NCBI GenBank assembly: GCA_032986305.1
Contig: GCA_032986305.1_3672.1
Reading direction: 5' to 3' (one strand)
DNA length: 64,000 nt
Source: a phage
Shown here: piece after piece, positions 1 through 40,985 of the stretch
Numbering within the stretch: the stretch's first letter is position 1
How the letters are laid out: the number at the start of each line of letters is the position of its first letter
The notes under the pieces: model-generated
What the model was told of the DNA's origin: nothing
The model's input: only the letters and a program-made list of their open reading frames with translations
The model's database searches: none
Program-made: the position numbers and the translations under genes

Positions 1-372
1 ACGATCCACAACCCTGTCTGGAACATCATGAATGCTTTTATTACCATGGCGGTTTTCAACCACGATCACGGTATAACTATACCCATGACTGATCGCCATG
101 TCAATATATTCTTGCACATATTTTTCTTTTGTAAACGTATTACTTACCACGATACGGTCGTATCCCATACGCATCATATCTTCTACGTTATCTTTGCACC
201 ATTTTGCTGCAAGTGTTACTTTACTTGCATCCCAGTTATAATTTCCATCATCGTCGTACCAGAACATGTCGTTCTCAAAATGTGGATACAGACCGTCTAA
301 AGATAGCGCATTTGCCAGTGTTGATTTGCCAGACCCTGGCAGACCACGCACGATATATAGCATTTTAGACAT
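1..372 (-). CDS. P-loop kinase, polynucleotide-kinase-like (3' end outside window)
   Basis: Minus-strand ORF starting ATG at 372 with RBS GGAGG; N-terminus MSKMLYIVRGLPGSGKSTLANAL has Walker A; divergent from RNA ligase. Confidence 0.55.
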   Translation of the reverse strand, partial: MSKMLYIVRGLPGSGKSTLANALSLDGLYPHFENDMFWYDDDGNYNWDASKVTLAAKWCKDNVEDMMRMGYDRIVVSNTFTKEKYVQEYIDMAISHGYSYTVIVVENRHGNKSIHDVPDRVVDR

Positions 373-472: not shown

Positions 473-1408
473 ATGACAAATGAGGAACGTATGATGAAGT
501 ATTTTAATGCAGATGACCTAGTAGACAAAGGTCTTGTAACCAGTCGGTATTATCCAGATCTTGGATTAAAGATCTATAAATATGCCAGAAAAGTATTCTA
601 CAACAATCTGTGGCATTTGTCTCCGCGTTTACTGGAGTGCCGAGGTATTGTTGTTGGCAATGAGGGGAATGTTGTGGCATGGCCTTTCACAAAAGTATTC
701 AACTTAGGAGAAAACTCCACCAACCTACCGGACAGTAAACTTGTTACTGCGGTAGAGAAAAAGAACGGATTCCTTGGTGTGGTATCATCTCATAAAGGTG
801 AACTATTGTTCTCAACAACCGGATCTCTTGATTCTCCATATTGTAACCTCACAAAGGAAACCATCCAAGAGCAATGTGGTAATTTAGATCTTATCAAGAA
901 GGTTATGGGCAATGAAAACATGACATTCATGTTTGAAATTTGTCACCCTTCAGATCCGCATATTGTTCAGGAAGATCATGGCGCATATTTGATAGGTTGC
1001 AGATATAATGATTCTGGAATAATGCTGCCAGAAGCAGCTTTAGATGGGATTGCCAAATACCTTGGCGCAAAACGTCCTCACACTGTGCGTGAAATTCCGT
1101 TCAGCTATGCAAAAGAATTGGCTGCAGAAACAAGAGGTGAAGGGTATATGATTCGTAAGCCTTACTACCCTTATGATCTGCAGCTGAAGATCAAGTCTCC
1201 ATACTATCTGGCACGGAAGGCCGTAATGAGGGGTAAAGCTTGGAAGATTTGGGATGATGATATCTTTAAACGTGTTGACGAAGAGTTTTACGGCATGGTA
1301 AACTTCATTCGTAGCAATTACACAGAAGATGTGTGGAACTGCCTACTGGAGCAGGAACGCAGGGAGATACTCGACCACTATTTCCACAACGAGGACTATA
1401 TGCAATGA
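473..1408 (+). CDS. RNA ligase (T4 Rnl1-like)
   Basis: 311 aa; LECRGIVV segment matches recalled T4 RnlA ALECRGIMF region. Confidence 0.7.
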   Translation: MTNEERMMKYFNADDLVDKGLVTSRYYPDLGLKIYKYARKVFYNNLWHLSPRLLECRGIVVGNEGNVVAWPFTKVFNLGENSTNLPDSKLVTAVEKKNGFLGVVSSHKGELLFSTTGSLDSPYCNLTKETIQEQCGNLDLIKKVMGNENMTFMFEICHPSDPHIVQEDHGAYLIGCRYNDSGIMLPEAALDGIAKYLGAKRPHTVREIPFSYAKELAAETRGEGYMIRKPYYPYDLQLKIKSPYYLARKAVMRGKAWKIWDDDIFKRVDEEFYGMVNFIRSNYTEDVWNCLLEQERREILDHYFHNEDYMQ

Positions 1409-1755
1409 AGAAGTTGATTGTGTGGCTGGATGATTTGAGAGATCCGTCAAATTATGGACTCCCAGACGCTGTTTGGCTGAAGAATTCCTCCGAGTTTATG
1501 GATTTTATTAACGATAATGGAAAGCTCTACAGACGCGTTTCTGAGTGGCATATGGACAACGACTTAGGAGAAGTATTCGAAGGATATGATTGCCTATCCA
1601 TGTTGGAGGAAAAATTTGTATTCGGTAAGCCTCCCGTGGTTGACAACGTGAAGATTTTCGTACATACTTCTAATCCATCAGCGGCTCGTAAATTCATGCT
1701 TGCAGCTGACTCGTTTAAAAAGTTTGGAATAGAGATTAAACAAAACATCTACTGA
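1405..1755 (+). CDS. hypothetical protein
   Basis: ATGA overlap with RNA ligase stop; 116 aa MKKLIVWLDDLRDP...; no family recognised. Confidence 0.5.
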   Translation: MKKLIVWLDDLRDPSNYGLPDAVWLKNSSEFMDFINDNGKLYRRVSEWHMDNDLGEVFEGYDCLSMLEEKFVFGKPPVVDNVKIFVHTSNPSAARKFMLAADSFKKFGIEIKQNIY

Positions 1756-1763
1756 GGACACTT

Positions 1764-2525
1764 ATGCGACGACTGATTATTATCTCCGGTGCTGGTTTGA
1801 GCGCTGAATCTGGTATTCCCACTTTCCGATCTGGTAGCACTGCAATGTGGGAGAATTTCAGCATCGATGAGGTGTGCAACATCCACACCTTTGCCAAGAA
1901 CTACTATAAGGTGCATGACTTTTACAATGCACGTCGTGTAGCTCTGGGCAGTGTTGATCCTAACCTTGCACATCTTCGGATCGCTGAGTGGTATTCCCGC
2001 TGGTCTGGTCGTGTGATCAACCTTACCACCAATGTAGATGATTTGCTGGAGCGTGCTGGTGTAAAACATGAAGATATTTTACATGTCCACGGGTATTTGC
2101 CTGAAATCACCTACGAAGATGCTGAAGGTAATGATGTAATTAAAAATATCGGATACACGGAGGTAGATACAGGTAAGTATACCTGGGTTAAGCCCAATGT
2201 AGTGTTCTTCGGTGAGGTTGCTCCTAAGTATACAGACATGTATGACCTGTTGACATCTCTCACAAGCAATGATATGGTGATCCTGGTAGGTTGTTCTAAC
2301 ACAGTTATTAATTTTAACTGGGAATTGTTTCCTGCTACTTGTAAAGGCACAAAACTGCTGATTGTAAACAAGTATGATTCGCAGAGTGCAGATGGAAGTG
2401 GCATTTCACGTAGCGACCTTTATCAATATGAGGATCGCGGGATCCCTGTATGGTTTAACGGTGCTGTTGACGCTTTCTCTGATAAAGTATTTATTGAAAC
2501 TGTAGAAAACTTTATGGAACTTTAA
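1764..2525 (+). CDS. Sir2-family NAD-dependent protein (sirtuin-like, zinc ribbon absent)
   Basis: GAGLSAESGIPTFR NAD-binding motif, TTNVDDLLERAG, catalytic HG (HVHGYL); no CxxC pairs where sirtuin Zn ribbon normally sits. Confidence 0.8.
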   Translation: MRRLIIISGAGLSAESGIPTFRSGSTAMWENFSIDEVCNIHTFAKNYYKVHDFYNARRVALGSVDPNLAHLRIAEWYSRWSGRVINLTTNVDDLLERAGVKHEDILHVHGYLPEITYEDAEGNDVIKNIGYTEVDTGKYTWVKPNVVFFGEVAPKYTDMYDLLTSLTSNDMVILVGCSNTVINFNWELFPATCKGTKLLIVNKYDSQSADGSGISRSDLYQYEDRGIPVWFNGAVDAFSDKVFIETVENFMEL

Positions 2526-2538
2526 AAGGAGACCTTTA

Positions 2539-3252
2539 ATGCTGAATACTAAACTGATCGACAACCTGGAAAAACTGTCTCAGCCTGAAAACTACCTTTG
2601 GTCTGCCAACTGGGTGGAAAACTGGAACCGTGTGGCAGCTAAGGTGAAAAAATCATACACACCATTCGAATTACAGCTTAGCTTCATTGAGGAAGAGTTC
2701 AATGAAGTTTTGGAAGAGCTGGAGAAAGGTGATGGTGGAGATCACTTGCTAAAAGAGGCCTGCGATCTTCATGTTGTCACAAGTTATGCCGCTTATCTTG
2801 TTAATGACAATCACGAAAAGTGGTCAAACCTGTTTGATAATCCACGAGGTATTAAGTTCAAGATTGGTGAGTTCTATGATACACTGATCGCTGCGAAAAA
2901 CACCTCTAAGCAAAGAGCGTCTGCTTACCGCTTAGCAGAGTTGTCAACAGCTTTGCTGTTCCAGCTTCGCGGAGATGTGTGCGGGATGATGCGTAAGGTT
3001 CTCAAATCGAATGACAGCAAGTTTGCACGGGTCAACCATCTACGGTATTCACACGGTGCCAGTGCAGATATGCCTGCTGAACAACTCATCGAGTTGGAGA
3101 TTAAAGATCTTGAGCGACGCTTTGATGGTCGATATGAAGGTTTTGTTGCTAAGGAAGAATTCTACAACGGTAATAAAGTTATCATATTCCTTGACAGTAA
3201 AGGTAAGATCATGAAGCCTTCAAGCTTCAAGGATGTAACAGGGTATATTTAA
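2539..3252 (+). CDS. MazG-like nucleotide pyrophosphohydrolase (putative)
   Basis: EEEFNEVLEELEKGDGGDHLLKEACDL resembles MazG E-x2-E ... E-x2-D motif. Confidence 0.5.
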   Translation: MLNTKLIDNLEKLSQPENYLWSANWVENWNRVAAKVKKSYTPFELQLSFIEEEFNEVLEELEKGDGGDHLLKEACDLHVVTSYAAYLVNDNHEKWSNLFDNPRGIKFKIGEFYDTLIAAKNTSKQRASAYRLAELSTALLFQLRGDVCGMMRKVLKSNDSKFARVNHLRYSHGASADMPAEQLIELEIKDLERRFDGRYEGFVAKEEFYNGNKVIIFLDSKGKIMKPSSFKDVTGYI

Positions 3253-3258
3253 CAACAT

Positions 3259-3285
3259 AGCCGGGATCACCCGGCTTTACTTGTT
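3259..3285 (+). terminator. intrinsic terminator
   Basis: AGCCGGG-atca-CCCGGCT hairpin followed by T-rich tail. Confidence 0.5.
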
Positions 3286-3624: not shown

Positions 3625-3880
3625 TCTTGCTAAACCTGTAGAAGCCCACCAGTTTGACGGAAGCTCTTCATCAGTATCTGATCTGCAACGGTGGATTGAT
3701 ACAGGTGTGTTTACATCGTCACCTGTTCGGACCAGAGATCTTCGTCGCATGTGTGAGCTTGTCGAGCCTTTTGGTAACCTTGTCTTGTACCAAGGAGATT
3801 GGCTAGTTGACTTTATGGGAGACTGGTTGGTAATGAGTAAAGAAGAGATGTTTAAAATTTTTAAGGAAGAGGCCGAGTAA
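3611..3880 (+). CDS. hypothetical protein
   Basis: 89 aa ORF; stop overlaps ligase start (TAATG). Confidence 0.4.
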   Translation: MPLFNLAKPVEAHQFDGSSSSVSDLQRWIDTGVFTSSPVRTRDLRRMCELVEPFGNLVLYQGDWLVDFMGDWLVMSKEEMFKIFKEEAE

Positions 3881-5163
3881 TGCATCAAATCAAAACAACA
3901 CTGTACGCACTGAACAAAGATGGCAGCTACCAACAGTGGAAAGTATTCACTGATGGCGAAAAGGTTATCGTAGAGTTTGGCAAGCTTGACGGTAAATTGC
4001 AGTACAAAGAGACGGTATGCACACCTAAGAACGTAGGTCGTGCCAATGAGACTACAGCTGAGCAACAGGCCGAGCTTGAGGCTATCAGCAAGTGGGAAAA
4101 ACAAGTCCGTCTGGGGTATGTTGAAAACATGGAAGATTGCGAGCAGGGTGTTGATCTTTTACCCATGCTGGTGCATGACTACCTGAAGCGTGGCAAGGCA
4201 CTTAAACTACCTTGCTGGATCTTGCGTAAGTTAGATGGCCTTCGTCTGCTTGTTGTTTTCCAAAATGGTGAGCCTAAATTTATTTCCCGTGGTAATAAGT
4301 CCTACCCTATTCAAGGAAAGCTTTTAGAGCAACTTCGTTCTTTCCATTCTACCACTGGGATTAAACAACTTGATGGGGAACTATACATTCATGGTCTTCC
4401 TTTGCAGAAAATAGTGTCTCTTGCTAAACGGTGGCGAACACAGGAAGAGATTCAGGCCGAGATCGATAAAGACTATGAGGCAGATAAAAAACGCCGTCAT
4501 ACCGCAATTAAGGCAGGCTTATCAACATACAAAAACTTCAACAAGGTAGATATTCCTGTCGATGTTGAGCCTGTTCGTGATGATTTGCGTTACGGTGGGT
4601 ACTGTAGCTACGATCTTGAGTATCACATTTTTGATATTCCTAGCGACAAGGTGTGGTGGGATCCAGAAACAGAGTCTGGACGCTGCAAGGATCTTATGGA
4701 TGCAGAGGATACCGTTACCACTCTGATGCTTGACCATATCAAGGTTGTTGACGCAGAGCTTGCGTACACAGTTGATCATTGCGAAGAATCTGTTGGTATA
4801 TTCATGTCCGAAGGATATGAAGGTACTATCATGCGTAATTTCTGCGGTAAATATGAGTATGGTCAGAGAACATCTGAAGCATTGAAATGGAAAAAGTTCA
4901 ACGACGCAGAGGTGAAAGTTATTGACGTTGAGAAAGATAAGAATGATGAAGGTGTTCTTATCTGTGTTGACAAGGAAGGTGTTGTTGTTAAAATGAAGAT
5001 GAAAGGCACGCACGAGGAGCGTAGCTATGACAGGATGCAGGAAATGATCGGCAAGTTTGTCACCTTCAAATATCAAGCAAGGACAGAAGACAACAACTAC
5101 CAATTCCCTGTCGGTATCTGCGTCCGAAATGTTAACCCAGACACTTGGGAGGTGCTGGAATAA
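3880..5163 (+). CDS. ATP-dependent DNA ligase
   Basis: 427 aa; nucleotidyltransferase motif I KLDGLR; EGTIMRN motif; resembles recalled T7 gp1.3 layout. Confidence 0.7.
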   Translation: MHQIKTTLYALNKDGSYQQWKVFTDGEKVIVEFGKLDGKLQYKETVCTPKNVGRANETTAEQQAELEAISKWEKQVRLGYVENMEDCEQGVDLLPMLVHDYLKRGKALKLPCWILRKLDGLRLLVVFQNGEPKFISRGNKSYPIQGKLLEQLRSFHSTTGIKQLDGELYIHGLPLQKIVSLAKRWRTQEEIQAEIDKDYEADKKRRHTAIKAGLSTYKNFNKVDIPVDVEPVRDDLRYGGYCSYDLEYHIFDIPSDKVWWDPETESGRCKDLMDAEDTVTTLMLDHIKVVDAELAYTVDHCEESVGIFMSEGYEGTIMRNFCGKYEYGQRTSEALKWKKFNDAEVKVIDVEKDKNDEGVLICVDKEGVVVKMKMKGTHEERSYDRMQEMIGKFVTFKYQARTEDNNYQFPVGICVRNVNPDTWEVLE

Positions 5164-37219: not shown

Positions 37220-37471
37220 ATGACGAAGATTGACTTGAATGCTGGCGACCATGTTGTTGTCAAATGCATCGGAGATTATCTTGGATTCACAATCGGCAAT
37301 ACTTACGAGGCGGTAGTGGCGAAGGTTTATCATGATAAAGTCCTCAGTCTTGTATTTGACTGCGATGATGATGGGGATGACCGATACGTTTGTGAGGTGC
37401 TGGCACGAGACGATAGTGAAGACCAGAAATTCCTGGTTATTGAACTGAACGGTATTTTTGTAGAACGTTAA
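37220..37471 (+). CDS. hypothetical protein
   Basis: MTKIDLNAGD..., 83 aa. Confidence 0.4.
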   Translation: MTKIDLNAGDHVVVKCIGDYLGFTIGNTYEAVVAKVYHDKVLSLVFDCDDDGDDRYVCEVLARDDSEDQKFLVIELNGIFVER

Positions 37472-37499
37472 TTTAAAACAACATAAGGAGACTCTTACT

Positions 37500-37805
37500 A
37501 TGGCTAAATCTAAAGTTGAACTGTTCACCTCTCTTCCTTCTGACACTGCAGAGCGTGATCGCCTTCGCAAGACAATCGAAGAACTGGTTGAACTCCAACT
37601 TCAGATTAAAGATCTGAAAGATGCCATTAAGGATATCATTCTCGTTGAGAAGCAGGATCATCTGTATTCTCCTAAATTCATCAAATCTCTGGTGGCTACC
37701 GAGTTCGATATTCGCTATGAGGCTGAAAAACGTCGAGCTAAAATCGAAGAAGAGGTTGAGCACATGTCTGAGGCAGACATTCTGTTCAAACGCTCTGTAG
37801 AATAA
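37500..37805 (+). CDS. hypothetical coiled-coil protein
   Basis: RBS AAGGAGA; charged heptad-like sequence. Confidence 0.45.
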   Translation: MAKSKVELFTSLPSDTAERDRLRKTIEELVELQLQIKDLKDAIKDIILVEKQDHLYSPKFIKSLVATEFDIRYEAEKRRAKIEEEVEHMSEADILFKRSVE

Positions 37806-37811
37806 TGACAA

Positions 37812-37838
37812 AGAGGGGCTTTGACCCCTCTTTTTACT
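37812..37838 (+). terminator. intrinsic terminator
   Basis: AGAGGGG-ctttga-CCCCTCT then TTTTAC. Confidence 0.55.
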
Positions 37839-37858
37839 ATCTATGAAGGAGATTTGAG

Positions 37859-38185
37859 ATGGGTATACCGGTCACTGTAAAAGAATTGAATGAACGTGAT
37901 GCAGGTGGTCTATGGCCTGCACGAAAAATACGCTGCGTCTACATGAAAGAGAACCTTGAACATCTTGATCAACAGATCAAGGTCGGTGATATTTTCGAGG
38001 TCTTCTATTCCAATCGTCGCAACTGGGAAACCATTCAGCCTTCTGGTTTTGTTCTTGCCAAACTTGACACTGGAGAAGTGATTATTCCAGGGTTGGATAT
38101 TGTCTTCGAAATTATCCAGGAGTGGGATCCGGATAAGATTAGATACGAAGAGTTATTCGGTAAAGGTATTATCAAACCTGTGTGA
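37859..38185 (+). CDS. hypothetical protein
   Basis: RBS GGAGA; 108 aa. Confidence 0.4.
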   Translation: MGIPVTVKELNERDAGGLWPARKIRCVYMKENLEHLDQQIKVGDIFEVFYSNRRNWETIQPSGFVLAKLDTGEVIIPGLDIVFEIIQEWDPDKIRYEELFGKGIIKPV

Positions 38186-38193
38186 GGTGGATT

Positions 38194-38493
38194 ATGTCTA
38201 CAAAGGCGGCTAAATACTCTTACATGCCATCAACCTCTGCAGAGGTAGACTTTAGTTTTGATGTGTTTCCACTGTTCGAGGTGGTTCTGGCATACCCAAC
38301 AATACTATCTACCCCTGAATCACTTGTGCCTGTTAAGTTGCAGAACGCTATGCATTCTATGCATTACAACAATAAATGTAGGCACAGATGGTGTCAGGAC
38401 GAGGAAAAGGATCTGGACAGTTTGAGAGATTTTGACAATCACCTTTTGACACCTTTCAGCTACTCCAACCTTGATAAGCCCTCATGGATATAG
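38194..38493 (+). CDS. hypothetical protein
   Basis: ATG after RBS GAGGTGG. Confidence 0.4.
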   Translation: MSTKAAKYSYMPSTSAEVDFSFDVFPLFEVVLAYPTILSTPESLVPVKLQNAMHSMHYNNKCRHRWCQDEEKDLDSLRDFDNHLLTPFSYSNLDKPSWI

Positions 38494-38517
38494 CAAAATA
38501 TCAAATTTAAGACACCT

Positions 38518-38550
38518 AGGACGCTCTGTGGCGTCCTTTTCTTTATTTAG
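38518..38550 (+). terminator. intrinsic terminator
   Basis: AGGACGC-tctgtg-GCGTCCT then TTTTCTTTATTT. Confidence 0.6.
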
Positions 38551-38706
38551 TGCACGATTGCATACCTTGGACAGATAATCTCATTACAGAGCGTTTAAGA
38601 GCTTCCTGCAAACAACTCCATATTTCGAGCGTAGCGAGAACGCACGTCCGTTTTGACCAAAATCACCATACGCTCGGATTTTAACCAAACCCTCGCGGCG
38701 TTTATG

Positions 38707-38735
38707 TTGACACATTACCGCTCTCGTGATAGTAT
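38707..38735 (+). promoter_or_regulatory. sigma70-like promoter
   Basis: TTGACA - 17 nt - TAGTAT. Confidence 0.5.
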
Positions 38736-38853
38736 CCACACATAGTTTGTAGAATATGGAATACACAATGAAAACATTGTCCGAAGTTTTGGTAGTGATC
38801 CTGATGATCATTACGTCCATAGCAGCTGTTGCCGGAATACTCACGGGTGGAAC

Positions 38854-39066
38854 ATGATCAACACACATGTATCTGAAGAGACATCCAAAGGGGTGACCAT
38901 CTGTCACTTGGCTGAGCCAGTGCAAGAGGAAAACTTCGATTCTGAAGATTCTCCATCTTCGCTACAGGTAGATCCTGAGGCTGATGACCTGACGTGGGAG
39001 GACATCGTAGATATCTGGTTCTCTATTATGCCTGAGCACGAAGAGTTCAGGGGTGGTAGACTATGA
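38854..39066 (+). CDS. hypothetical acidic protein
   Basis: 70 aa; preferred over antisense ORF 38584..38925. Confidence 0.35.
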   Translation: MINTHVSEETSKGVTICHLAEPVQEENFDSEDSPSSLQVDPEADDLTWEDIVDIWFSIMPEHEEFRGGRL

Positions 39067-39187
39067 AGCACCGAGCCCACACAGGTTCCTCATGCTAAAG
39101 CATGGCCTGAAGAGGCAAACGTGCATAATTCCTGTGCATTGGAACGTATGAAACCCTGTTCACACTCTCATTTCCAGAGGAGATTTC

Positions 39188-39403
39188 ATGAAGATAGAAA
39201 TATTTGGTGGAGCTGACAACACTCGTGGCCTGATTTACCTTGAATTCGATGAATCATACCTGCCAGAGGTGTTAAATATAAACTCTGTTGCTGAGGCTTT
39301 GGGAGTAAACCCTAAAGAACTCCACTCTTGTGCTGAGATCGATGGTTGGGAAGAGACCATGAACATTGATTTCAGTGAAGTAGAGGATGAACCGCTGGAC
39401 TGA
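39188..39403 (+). CDS. hypothetical protein (MKIEI small paralog family)
   Basis: MKIEIFGGADNT..., RBS AGAGGAGA. Confidence 0.45.
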   Translation: MKIEIFGGADNTRGLIYLEFDESYLPEVLNINSVAEALGVNPKELHSCAEIDGWEETMNIDFSEVEDEPLD

Positions 39404-40985
39404 CACACAATTAGCTGCCCGGCTAAAGTGCTGGAAGCACCTATAACACATCTTTCAACTAAATTTCCCACCACCACAATCACTTACCTCCCACACATGA
39501 CTGTTTGCTTGTTTAGTGAGCAGTCATGCCTTGACATTCTTGCCTATCCTGATAAAATTAAGTTCTTCTCTTTTCTTTTACCGAGTAATTCGGGTTTTCT
39601 GTTCTCTTCGGTTTGAAGAGGTATGGAGATACACCTGAGTGAACAGGGTGAACAACCGAACCATTGGCTATGGCATTAGCATGGCGAAGCGGACGGGTGA
39701 CGAAAGAGGGGCCGGAGGACACCAGTCACTGCCATATGATATACGGGTGATAACCTGAAGAGTCTGAATAAGTGTTTAAGTACCAGTCAGAGGAAAAGGT
39801 GAATGGTAGCCGAAGGGGGAGGGGGGTTTCTTGTATCTTTAATTTGTATATTATGTATACACTTGTAAACCAATCTCATCTGAATCTGTTTACTACACAA
39901 AGCTGATAGGGACAAATATTACCTATTAAACTTGAATTATTTATAGAAAATACCACAACACAACTTAAGTCTTTGATTTTACACACAAATCCTGCAGATA
40001 TTCACCCTCCATATTTAACATACTTGTAACATATTCCATACTCTACCTACCTGATCAATTTACCCACCAACATCCTCCATATTTTCCCTGTCTGTACCAC
40101 CCCTGCCCCGCCGGGAGTCCCGTCATATCTGGCTTTCCAGCAAATATCACACCCACAAATATCATTGCCTGAAGAGGATTTCATCTCATAATACATGCCT
40201 TGCCTGAAGAGCGCTTCATACACCACGTAAATTTTTTAATTGACCCCCTCCCCGCCGCCGGAGAGGTTGGCTTTTCCCACACAGACCTGAAGAGTCAGCC
40301 AGAAATATCTGAATGGACCCAATTCTGCCCTGTTATGAGCCGTAGCTACTGGAGTGCTGCCAGGCGGACGAAATGGGAATACTTCTCATTCTTATAACAA
40401 TTCTCAAATATCAAGGCAGTGAGTCAAATTAATAGGCGAGGCCGTTCACACAGTGGCACAACATTTGCAACCTATCTTGTGGGGGTGAATGAGAATACCT
40501 ATCATTGTGAGAATAGTTATCATTACGGGCAATTTAACATAATACCCATTATGCGCACCACTGGCGATACATACAGGGATTGATAACATGAGTTACTGTT
40601 TACGCATATAACAATTATATTTCTTACTATTTGTGTGGGATATAGTTAGCAGCCAATAGATTAGATATTGACCTGTAGACTTCCAACCGTCTAGACGTCT
40701 AAACGCCCACACAGCAAGGGTTATACATACACTTCTGAATGTAAACAGGGCCGCAAAAATGCTACCATACCAGTTTGTAAATTTTTCATGCAGCACTTGA
40801 CAAAGAGGAGAAAAACTTGTCTGACACTTTAGACACAATAGTGACATACTATGACACCTTTGACACTTTTGCATACCTGATTGTTTGCATGTCTAATAGT
40901 TTACATGGATAACTGTTCACATACTTATCATTTACATGATTGACTGTTTACACAAATATGATAAGCCATGACATTCGTTTGCATG

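Follow-up and report, generated by a model that had tools for sequence, protein, structure and literature searches.

The 64,000-nucleotide stretch of phage DNA analysed here (GenBank assembly GCA_032986305.1, contig GCA_032986305.1_3672.1; hereafter the window) carries near its start a gene for a standalone sirtuin (SIR2-domain protein) without the cysteine ligands of the zinc ribbon. The question raised by this locus is what such an enzyme does in a phage: whether it hydrolyses NAD+, as the first-pass annotation had suggested by analogy with the SIR2 domains of bacterial defence systems, whether it deacylates proteins, or whether it acts on some other substrate. Our analysis describes it as a CobB-related, apparently active enzyme that has lost the metal ligands and is encoded among genes for RNA ligation and end processing. 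Following a published prediction, we tentatively propose (at a probability of roughly 0.35) that the phage sirtuin takes a 2'-phosphate off broken or re-ligated RNA, such as tRNA, at the expense of NAD+ and in the manner of KptA/Tpt1.

The sirtuin identity of the gene product is far beyond chance, given its match to Pfam SIR2 (PF02146; E=7e-28, 98.2 bits against a gathering cut-off of 24), in which residues 9-181 cover positions 1-178 of the 180-position model, and the match of the open reading frame (ORF) to PHROG 2162 'Sir2' (E=1.6e-108). The protein is 100% identical to one from Escherichia phage JES2013 annotated as 'Sir2 (NAD-dependent deacetylase)', and the sequence GAGGA stands 8 nt 5' of its ATG. 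The first-pass annotation had listed the NAD-binding loop GAGLSAESGIPTFR, the N/D motif and the catalytic His as retained, and all of them were indeed found (residues 9-22, N90/D92 and H109), together with VVFFGE, with the one correction that T89 stands where the canonical sirtuin motif, TQNxD, has Gln. The anion-recognition residues Y54/R57 align with FYNARR of CobB, and the GTSxxVxP (GTSxxVYP) substrate loop reads GCSNTVINF in the phage protein. The NCBIfam cut-offs for CobB and related deacylases were not reached (the best score being 122.6 versus 243 bits for NF001753; 104 versus 320 for prot_deacyl_CobB). The protein is strongly acidic, with an isoelectric point (pI) of 4.9 and a net charge of about -12 (family median pI 5.1). 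Judging by its motifs, it is apparently an active, NAD-dependent enzyme.

Its only Cys residues are C38, C177 and C193. As had been noted at first pass, no CxxC pair occurs between HG and VVFFGE, and residues 111-142 contain neither Cys nor His. The further statement that the zinc ribbon is lost holds for the Cys ligands but not for the module itself, 32 residues of which are kept. An AlphaFold2 model built with the family alignment as input (mean predicted local distance difference test score, pLDDT, 90.1; predicted template-modelling score 0.88) gives residues 110-150 a pLDDT of 94-96 and places strands at 110-118, 124-128 and 142-146. Within the phage family this segment is the least conserved (mean majority-residue frequency 0.50 versus 0.69 overall), with conserved anchors at L112, E114, G130-Y131 and W141. 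Two other accounts of the segment were considered and rejected. A search for an overlooked Cys4 module or another zinc site in residues 111-142 left E114 as the only conserved acidic candidate. A deletion of the zinc module is at odds with the confidently predicted strands and with the length of the HG...KPN slot, which is 31-39 residues in the phage family versus 34-37 in zinc-bearing relatives. According to the model, the metal ligands are lost and the ribbon itself is retained as a segment of about canonical length.

The comparison to CobB versus defence SIR2 proteins, proposed at first pass, came out in favor of CobB. A Foldseek search against the PDB returned E. coli CobB as the best match (E about 1e-18, template-modelling scores 0.75/0.84), followed by Sir2Af1, SIRT5 and SIRT2, and no defence SIR2 was among the top 50 matches. 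Only 29 residues were left unaligned to a zinc-bearing sirtuin, and therefore at least part of the module must superpose on the ribbon. By the model and by the alignment with zinc-bearing relatives described below, the phage module is a derived, metal-free zinc ribbon, predicted to be folded. The loss of the ligands is most simply read as a structural change to metal-independent folding of the small domain, not as a switch to NADase activity. It follows as a caution that the absence of Cys4 alone does not justify the label 'NADase'. On the other hand, the zinc-free small domain offers a natural case of a zinc ribbon turned into a metal-independent fold, which may be of some interest to protein engineering.

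Homologues of the sirtuin were detected by tblastn in 1011 of 50,697 phage records (about 2%), with identities to the window protein of 90-100% in Vequintavirus, 46-58% in Tequintavirus (T5-like) and relatives, about 55% in Mydovirus, about 47-50% in Phapecoctavirus, 41-49% in schizo-T4-like Vibrio phages and 39-43% in jumbo phages. A protein search gave 120 homologues, in 108 of which the HG...KPN slot could be located by motif search; with a single exception the slot holds 0-1 Cys, and it follows the pattern [YF]L.E ... [DN][IV]GY ... W.KPN. The slot is also Cys-free in the more distant sirtuins of phages VH7D and PHA46. Among the phage members examined, the loss of Cys4 is family-wide as far as their sequences tell. 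The active site has been preserved in the same family: an alignment of 62 sequences (homologues of 46-93% identity) has invariant G9, A10, G11, S16, F21, R22, W29, Y54, R57, R58, P66 and N67 in its first part, and H70, N86, T89, N90, D92, H109, G130, K143, P144, F148, F149 and E151 in the rest. By this pattern of conservation, the family is one of enzymes under constraint rather than a decaying gene or a decoy.

To place the Cys-free state among sirtuins at large, we used a HMMER search of 1.84 billion representatives, which returned 5484 relatives; the best 142 of at least 200 aa were classified into 48 without zinc ligands, 11 with a partial set and 83 with two CxxC knuckles. The zinc-bearing relatives share with the phage proteins the IGY, KPN.VFFG and DDLLER signatures and the slot length (as in ELKKLWCMDCKNIFEIGYSKYDLKKCEKCGSKWI, followed by KPY). 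Column by column, the first Cys corresponds to Y117, the second to N123 after a turn longer by 3 residues, and the CPxC knuckle is deleted. Thr at the Gln position of TQN is found in 36 of the 48 zinc-less and in 9 of the 83 zinc-bearing relatives (Fisher p=8e-14, a descriptive value that ignores kinship), so that, descriptively and at the level of sequence, zinc loss covaries with the change from TQN to TTN. The closest zinc-bearing representative examined (P0135) is about 51% identical to the phage protein (about 50% over residues 2-189) and is one of the short cellular sirtuins that make up a family in Helicobacter, Malacoplasma and Verrucomicrobiota. Like the phage sirtuin, these have EVCN, IGY, KPNVVFFG and DDLLER and a slot of 34-37 residues; unlike it, they keep CxxC...CPxC and TQN. 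The possibility that P0135 is itself viral was rejected: searched against the phage collection it matches best only zinc-less phage genes (~49%), and the family to which it belongs, like the contigs examined, is cellular. By these comparisons the nearest zinc-bearing relatives examined are cellular. Beside them no RNA-repair neighbours were found, their chromosomal contexts being of a housekeeping kind.

The context of the phage gene is of another kind. In the window a T4 Rnl1-type RNA ligase and a cREC protein (cyclic-phosphate processing receiver domain) precede the sirtuin and a MazG-like pyrophosphohydrolase follows it (Table 1), while a polynucleotide-kinase-like gene runs off the window start. 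In JES2013, over a 97.7%-identical locus, the full-length copy of this kinase matches AAA_33 (E=8.8e-11) and PHROG 505 polynucleotide kinase (5.7e-10), and is followed, just past the window edge, by a calcineurin-like phosphoesterase (Metallophos 6.4e-7). A context of the RNA-repair type recurs with shuffled gene order in phages whose sirtuin is only 39-57% identical: Rnl-cREC-AAA_33 kinase-x-Sir2-DNA ligase in Mydovirus, Sir2-x-HAD_SAK_2 (a 'Swiss Army Knife RNA repair' phosphatase) in T5-like phages, Sir2-Nudt16-like Nudix-cREC in Asteriusvirus and 2H/Acb1-like-Sir2-x-Nudix in the jumbo phage PHA46.

This arrangement has been described before. Iyer, Burroughs, Anantharaman and Aravind (2022, Viruses 14:1977; PMC9503650, section 3.7.3) defined a type 2 sirtuin neighbourhood 'prototyped by Escherichia phage V5 and Proteus phage Mydo', consisting of sirtuin, T4-like tRNA ligase, cREC, nucleotide kinase, MazG and sometimes a calcineurin-like phosphoesterase, with a T5-type HAD variant and a jumbo-phage 2H/Nudix/cREC variant. 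They predicted that the sirtuins act in a KptA-like way, removing 2'-phosphates in RNA repair; the missing zinc ligands and the change from TQN to TTN are not discussed there. The window locus belongs to the same phage group, its ligase, cREC, kinase, MazG and phosphoesterase being all present in the window or in the JES2013 locus, and it differs in no way in kind from the V5-type system. The loss of the ligands has been reported as well. Skliros et al. (2016, Front Microbiol 7:1807; PMC5107563) described Sir2/CobB proteins of the Vibrio phages phiSt2, phiGrn1 and KVP40 without the zinc ligand, proposed that salt bridges hold the finger domain folded, and suggested for these proteins a deacetylase role in activating acetyl-CoA synthetase. 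The Vibrio-phage proteins are of the same family as the window protein (the VH7D slot is likewise Cys-free), but the genes examined lack recognisable RNA-repair neighbours, and VH7D reads TANVSD, not TTNVDD. Thus the gene is widely annotated, and both zinc-ligand loss and RNA-repair linkage are published; what we add are modest increments, namely the family-wide extent of zinc loss among the members examined, the ribbon-derived module with its predicted fold, the covariation of zinc loss with TTN, and the cellular zinc-bearing sirtuins as the nearest such relatives among those examined.

The RNA-repair proposal is drawn from the packing of Rnl1, cREC and MazG around a sirtuin with an intact active site, from the recurrence of this context in distant lineages, and from the absence of such partners beside the zinc-bearing cellular relatives. 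In the scenario we envisage, a cellular CobB-like (class III-like) deacylase would have given rise to a catalytically competent, zinc-independent phage sirtuin, the loss of the ligands having come with the move into phages together with the replacement of Gln by Thr at the NAD-ribose contact. The sirtuin would then have been recruited into an RNA end-healing and sealing module of Rnl1, cREC, Sir2 and MazG, with the polynucleotide-kinase-like and metallophosphoesterase genes adjoining. In the first step of the putative reaction, an anionic oxygen of the substrate would attack C1'' of NAD+ and expel nicotinamide; in the second, the ribose 2''-OH, activated by His109, would attack the phosphate, which we infer to be bound by the Y54/R57/R58 cluster. 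The proposed analogue, KptA/Tpt1, likewise works by NAD+-dependent attack at C1'' followed by 2''-OH transesterification (for the two-step Tpt1 chemistry, see PMC11417386) and is likewise linked to genes for RNA ligase and cyclic phosphodiesterase. It has an unrelated fold, with neither sequence nor structural similarity to the phage sirtuin; KptA is assigned to the ART superfamily and is structurally unrelated to sirtuins (Iyer et al. 2022, PMC9503650).

A broader version of the proposal, which also goes back to the prediction of 2022, is slightly more doubtful: the Cys-free phage sirtuins might be the first sirtuins with a nucleic acid as physiological substrate, acting as NAD+-dependent RNA 2'-phosphotransferases derived from a protein deacylase and convergent with Tpt1/KptA. 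Here the remodelled small domain (zinc ligands gone, first knuckle longer, second deleted) and TTN would open the peptide cleft to an RNA end, and cREC would clear the ADP-ribose cyclic phosphate product. A sirtuin of this kind would provide a new substrate class for the fold and would make the phage tRNA-repair pathway complete, which matters for how phages evade anticodon nucleases and other defences that cleave RNA.

Several points weigh against the removal of an RNA 2'-phosphate. Beyond R57/R58 no phage-specific conserved basic patch is evident, and the acidic pI is unlike that of a typical RNA-binding enzyme. The hydrophobic acyl-lysine channel formed by V91, V146/147, F148/149 and V181/I182, along with YxxR, is what a desuccinylase-type deacylase would keep. 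Enzymes of the T4 and Clostridium Pnkp type remove 2',3'-cyclic phosphate outright, and the adjacent metallophosphoesterase could clear this group, therefore leaving no 2'-phosphate. The context argument has its own limits, as phage genes cluster by expression timing too, which makes adjacency weaker evidence than in bacteria. Moreover, an RNA-repair partner was not found beside the sirtuin in Phapecoctavirus or in KVP40-like Vibrio phages (of which VH7D was examined), and the literature searched holds computational papers only, with no biochemical test of a phage sirtuin.

The same residues can be read as those of a CobB/SIRT5-type NAD+-dependent lysine deacylase, probably preferring acidic acyl groups (succinyl, malonyl), which would strip such marks from host or phage proteins (e.g. 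enzymes of translation or transcription, or ligases), zinc loss being a structural simplification only. We regard this as the main rival explanation, tentative but almost as probable as the removal of an RNA 2'-phosphate; under it, phages would edit the host acyl-proteome. CobB, Sir2Af1 and SIRT5 are the best matches in both sequence and structure, its nearest relatives, cellular sirtuins, carry deacylase annotations, the YxxR motif aligned with that of CobB is invariant, all catalytic and channel residues are kept, the acidic pI fits a protein substrate, and Skliros et al. (2016, PMC5107563) read the Vibrio-phage homologue in this way. On the other hand, E. coli CobB, human SIRT5 and Archaeoglobus Sir2Af1 are only 24-28% identical to the phage sirtuin, which differs from them in the absence of Cys4, in Thr for the Gln of TQN and in its location in a phage RNA-repair operon. 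The NCBIfam scores far under the cut-offs and the altered TQN and GTSxxVxP elements also speak against a conventional deacylase, and protein deacylation does not account for the repeated occurrence of cREC, 2H, HAD_SAK and Nudix genes near the sirtuin in lineages independent of one another. This linkage could be read in yet another way, if the sirtuin and the cREC, 2H/Acb1-like, Nudix and MazG proteins together served counter-defence, with small NAD-derived molecules or cyclic nucleotides, and not RNA ends, as the targets of the module. The PHA46 gene directly upstream of the sirtuin belongs by its match to the Acb1 family and a Nudt16-like Nudix gene lies two genes downstream; Asteriusvirus too has Nudix and cREC neighbours, and nucleotides are the substrates of MazG-like pyrophosphohydrolases. 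In the window, however, the sirtuin is accompanied by an RNA ligase and a polynucleotide-kinase-like enzyme, whose substrates are polynucleotide ends, no sirtuin is known to act on a signalling nucleotide, and no support was found in the literature searched for phage sirtuins and cREC, so that such a role appears unlikely.

Stable modification of a host protein or nucleic acid by ADP-ribosyl transfer (SirTM-like, or DNA/RNA-modifying) is permitted by sirtuin chemistry, and roles of this type were proposed by Iyer et al. (2022, PMC9503650) for other subsets of phage sirtuins. For the window protein we hold it to be improbable: it is 13% identical to macrodomain-linked SirTM and conserves the deacylase-type His and YxxR, it has no macrodomain operon, no Macro match having been obtained among its neighbours, and a weak Macro neighbour was seen only beside a distant Streptomyces-phage homologue (27% identity). 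Least supported of all, and very improbable, is the interpretation offered by the first-pass annotation, in which a SIR2 without zinc is an NADase (NAD+ glycohydrolase), or else a decoy for host defence SIR2 systems whose own catalysis is irrelevant. Sirtuins do hydrolyse NAD+ weakly as an intrinsic side reaction, and the phage protein shares the Rossmann core and the lack of Cys4 with the defence NADases (ThsA, DSR1/2, SIR2-HerA, SIR2-APAZ/Ago, Avs5). The KVP40 homologue was assigned a role in NAD+ hydrolysis when it was sequenced, according to Skliros et al. (2016, PMC5107563). Yet the PADLOC defence profiles gave no match beyond one spurious 13-bit score and Pfam SIR2_2 remained below threshold (13.2 versus 24.5 bits); the protein lies on another branch of the superfamily; it stands alone with 253 aa, with no SLOG, HerA, Ago/APAZ, STAND or C-terminal sensor partner; and the acyl/anion-recognition residues and the His, which are dispensable for an NADase, are invariant across the 62 homologues, which counts against the decoy as well. 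Depletion of NAD+ would also harm the phage itself, because no NAD+ salvage genes are annotated in JES2013 between 59 and 127 kb (nor are a macrodomain or KptA).

Returning to the locus behind the RNA-repair proposal, its features are collected in Table 1. The ORFs of ligase and cREC share 10 nt, and 8 nt separate the end of cREC from the start codon of the sirtuin. The PHROG 671 match of the MazG-like protein covers positions 522-650 of a 678-position profile, pointing to a divergent member, and no significant Pfam match was obtained for it (best PRA-PH, E=0.099). The genes within 473-3276 appear to be transcribed together, with ligase and cREC translationally coupled, the hairpin beyond the MazG-like gene being the likely end of the unit. 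This end is inferred from the position of the hairpin, which alone is suggestive: the promoter and terminator scan of the region gave counts at chance level, with terminators not above the shuffled expectation.

Table 1. Features of the sirtuin locus, in window coordinates.
Feature	Position	Strand	Remarks
Divergent P-loop kinase (GLPGSGKST), polynucleotide-kinase-like	1..372	-	first 124 codons; runs off window start
T4 Rnl1-type RNA ligase	473..1408	+	first gene of the unit; Pfam RNA_lig_T4_1 PF09511, E=1.1e-14
cREC	1399..1755	+	PF20274, E=1.4e-14; PHROG 1479
Sirtuin gene, standalone SIR2 domain	1764..2525	+	ATG start, 253 aa
NAD-binding loop GAGLSAESGIPTFR	1788..1829	+	residues 9-22; G9, A10, G11, S16, F21 and R22 invariant in family
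Y54-N-A-R57-R58, class-III (CobB/SIRT5-type) YxxR anion-recognition motif	1923..1937	+	invariant, 62 homologues
TTNVD	2025..2039	+	residues 88-92; N90 and D92 kept, T89 replaces Gln of TQNxD
Catalytic His109 in HVHG	2088..2090	+	invariant in all 142 aligned relatives
Cys-free zinc-ribbon remnant	2094..2189	+	residues 111-142, no Cys/His; beta-hairpin and third strand predicted
KPNVVFFGE, strand/loop lining acyl-lysine channel and NAD site	2190..2216	+	residues 143-151; VVFFGE = 146-151
MazG-like nucleotide pyrophosphohydrolase	2539..3252	+	PHROG 671, E=5.7e-22; starts 13 nt past sirtuin stop; annotated in relatives
GC-rich hairpin (7 bp, 6 GC) and T-rich tail	3259..3276	+	directly after MazG-like gene
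ATP-dependent DNA ligase	3880-5163		downstream of the unit

Some variation within the sirtuin family deserves mention. The rV5-type protein has an extra acidic/Ser-rich loop of 12-14 residues, KYDSQSADGSGISRSD (window 2370-2435, residues 203-224; pLDDT 60-75), which also occurs in a subset of the longer homologues (270-292 aa) and is missing from most. Several lineages (phi92-like, members of 270-300 aa) have 20-30 residues inserted into the helical portion of their small domain, at alignment columns of about 51-77 (for example GFRVYKKS-DFELN--GVDKDGIDLY); the rV5-type protein has no such insertion, which would fall between its residues 46 and 47. In Vibrio phage VH7D (L005 4998-5759) and in P0123, P0129 and P0137, TTNVD-D is replaced by T[TA]N[VI]S-D. 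The Asp of TQNxD normally lines the nicotinamide pocket; in the VH7D sub-group the aligned position holds Ser, with an Asp one residue later, and by this substitution its nicotinamide pocket may be altered or shifted. The gene for P0135, on a mycoplasma-like contig (L009), lies two genes downstream of a lipoate-protein ligase gene (LplA); as called, it does not yield the protein under translation table 11, which may reflect another genetic code.

Other observations concern annotation and the genomes at large. The sirtuin is carried, among others, by T5-like, rV5-like, phi92-like, Mydovirus, KVP40-like and jumbo phages that serve in therapy and as models. In the Salmonella jumbo phage PHA46 (L006), the gene at 4513-4959, directly upstream of the sirtuin, is annotated 'RNA ligase'; its match is to a family of the 2H phosphodiesterase superfamily, anti-CBASS Acb1 (PF23474, E=1.7e-16), and not to ATP-dependent ligases. 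The same phage has a NAMPT gene and a cytidylyltransferase-like gene 2-5 kb upstream. NCBI lists a full-length sirtuin homologue of Klebsiella phage vB_Kpn_3 (P0037; 50% identity at 100% coverage) under the name 'tail assembly protein', which is probably a misannotation. By its sequence the window comes from a Vequintavirus: over its first 6 kb it shares 96-98% identity with about 110 genomes of rV5-like phages, among them JES2013, PDX, Murica and FFH2. The same degree of identity (96-98%) to E. coli phages of the rV5 type was seen in this region for some 25 GenBank records without annotation that bear the name 'Campylobacter phage' (MG0656xx, host C. jejuni; e.g. H1, H2, H11-H13), which suggests that this series of submissions has mislabelled hosts or contains contaminating coliphages. 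Finally, about 2.6 kb of the window at about 37,300-39,900 (JES2013 102,702-105,296) contain one tiny annotated ORF and mark the switch between rightward and leftward gene blocks in the near-identical genome; this sparse stretch could be a regulatory or origin region.

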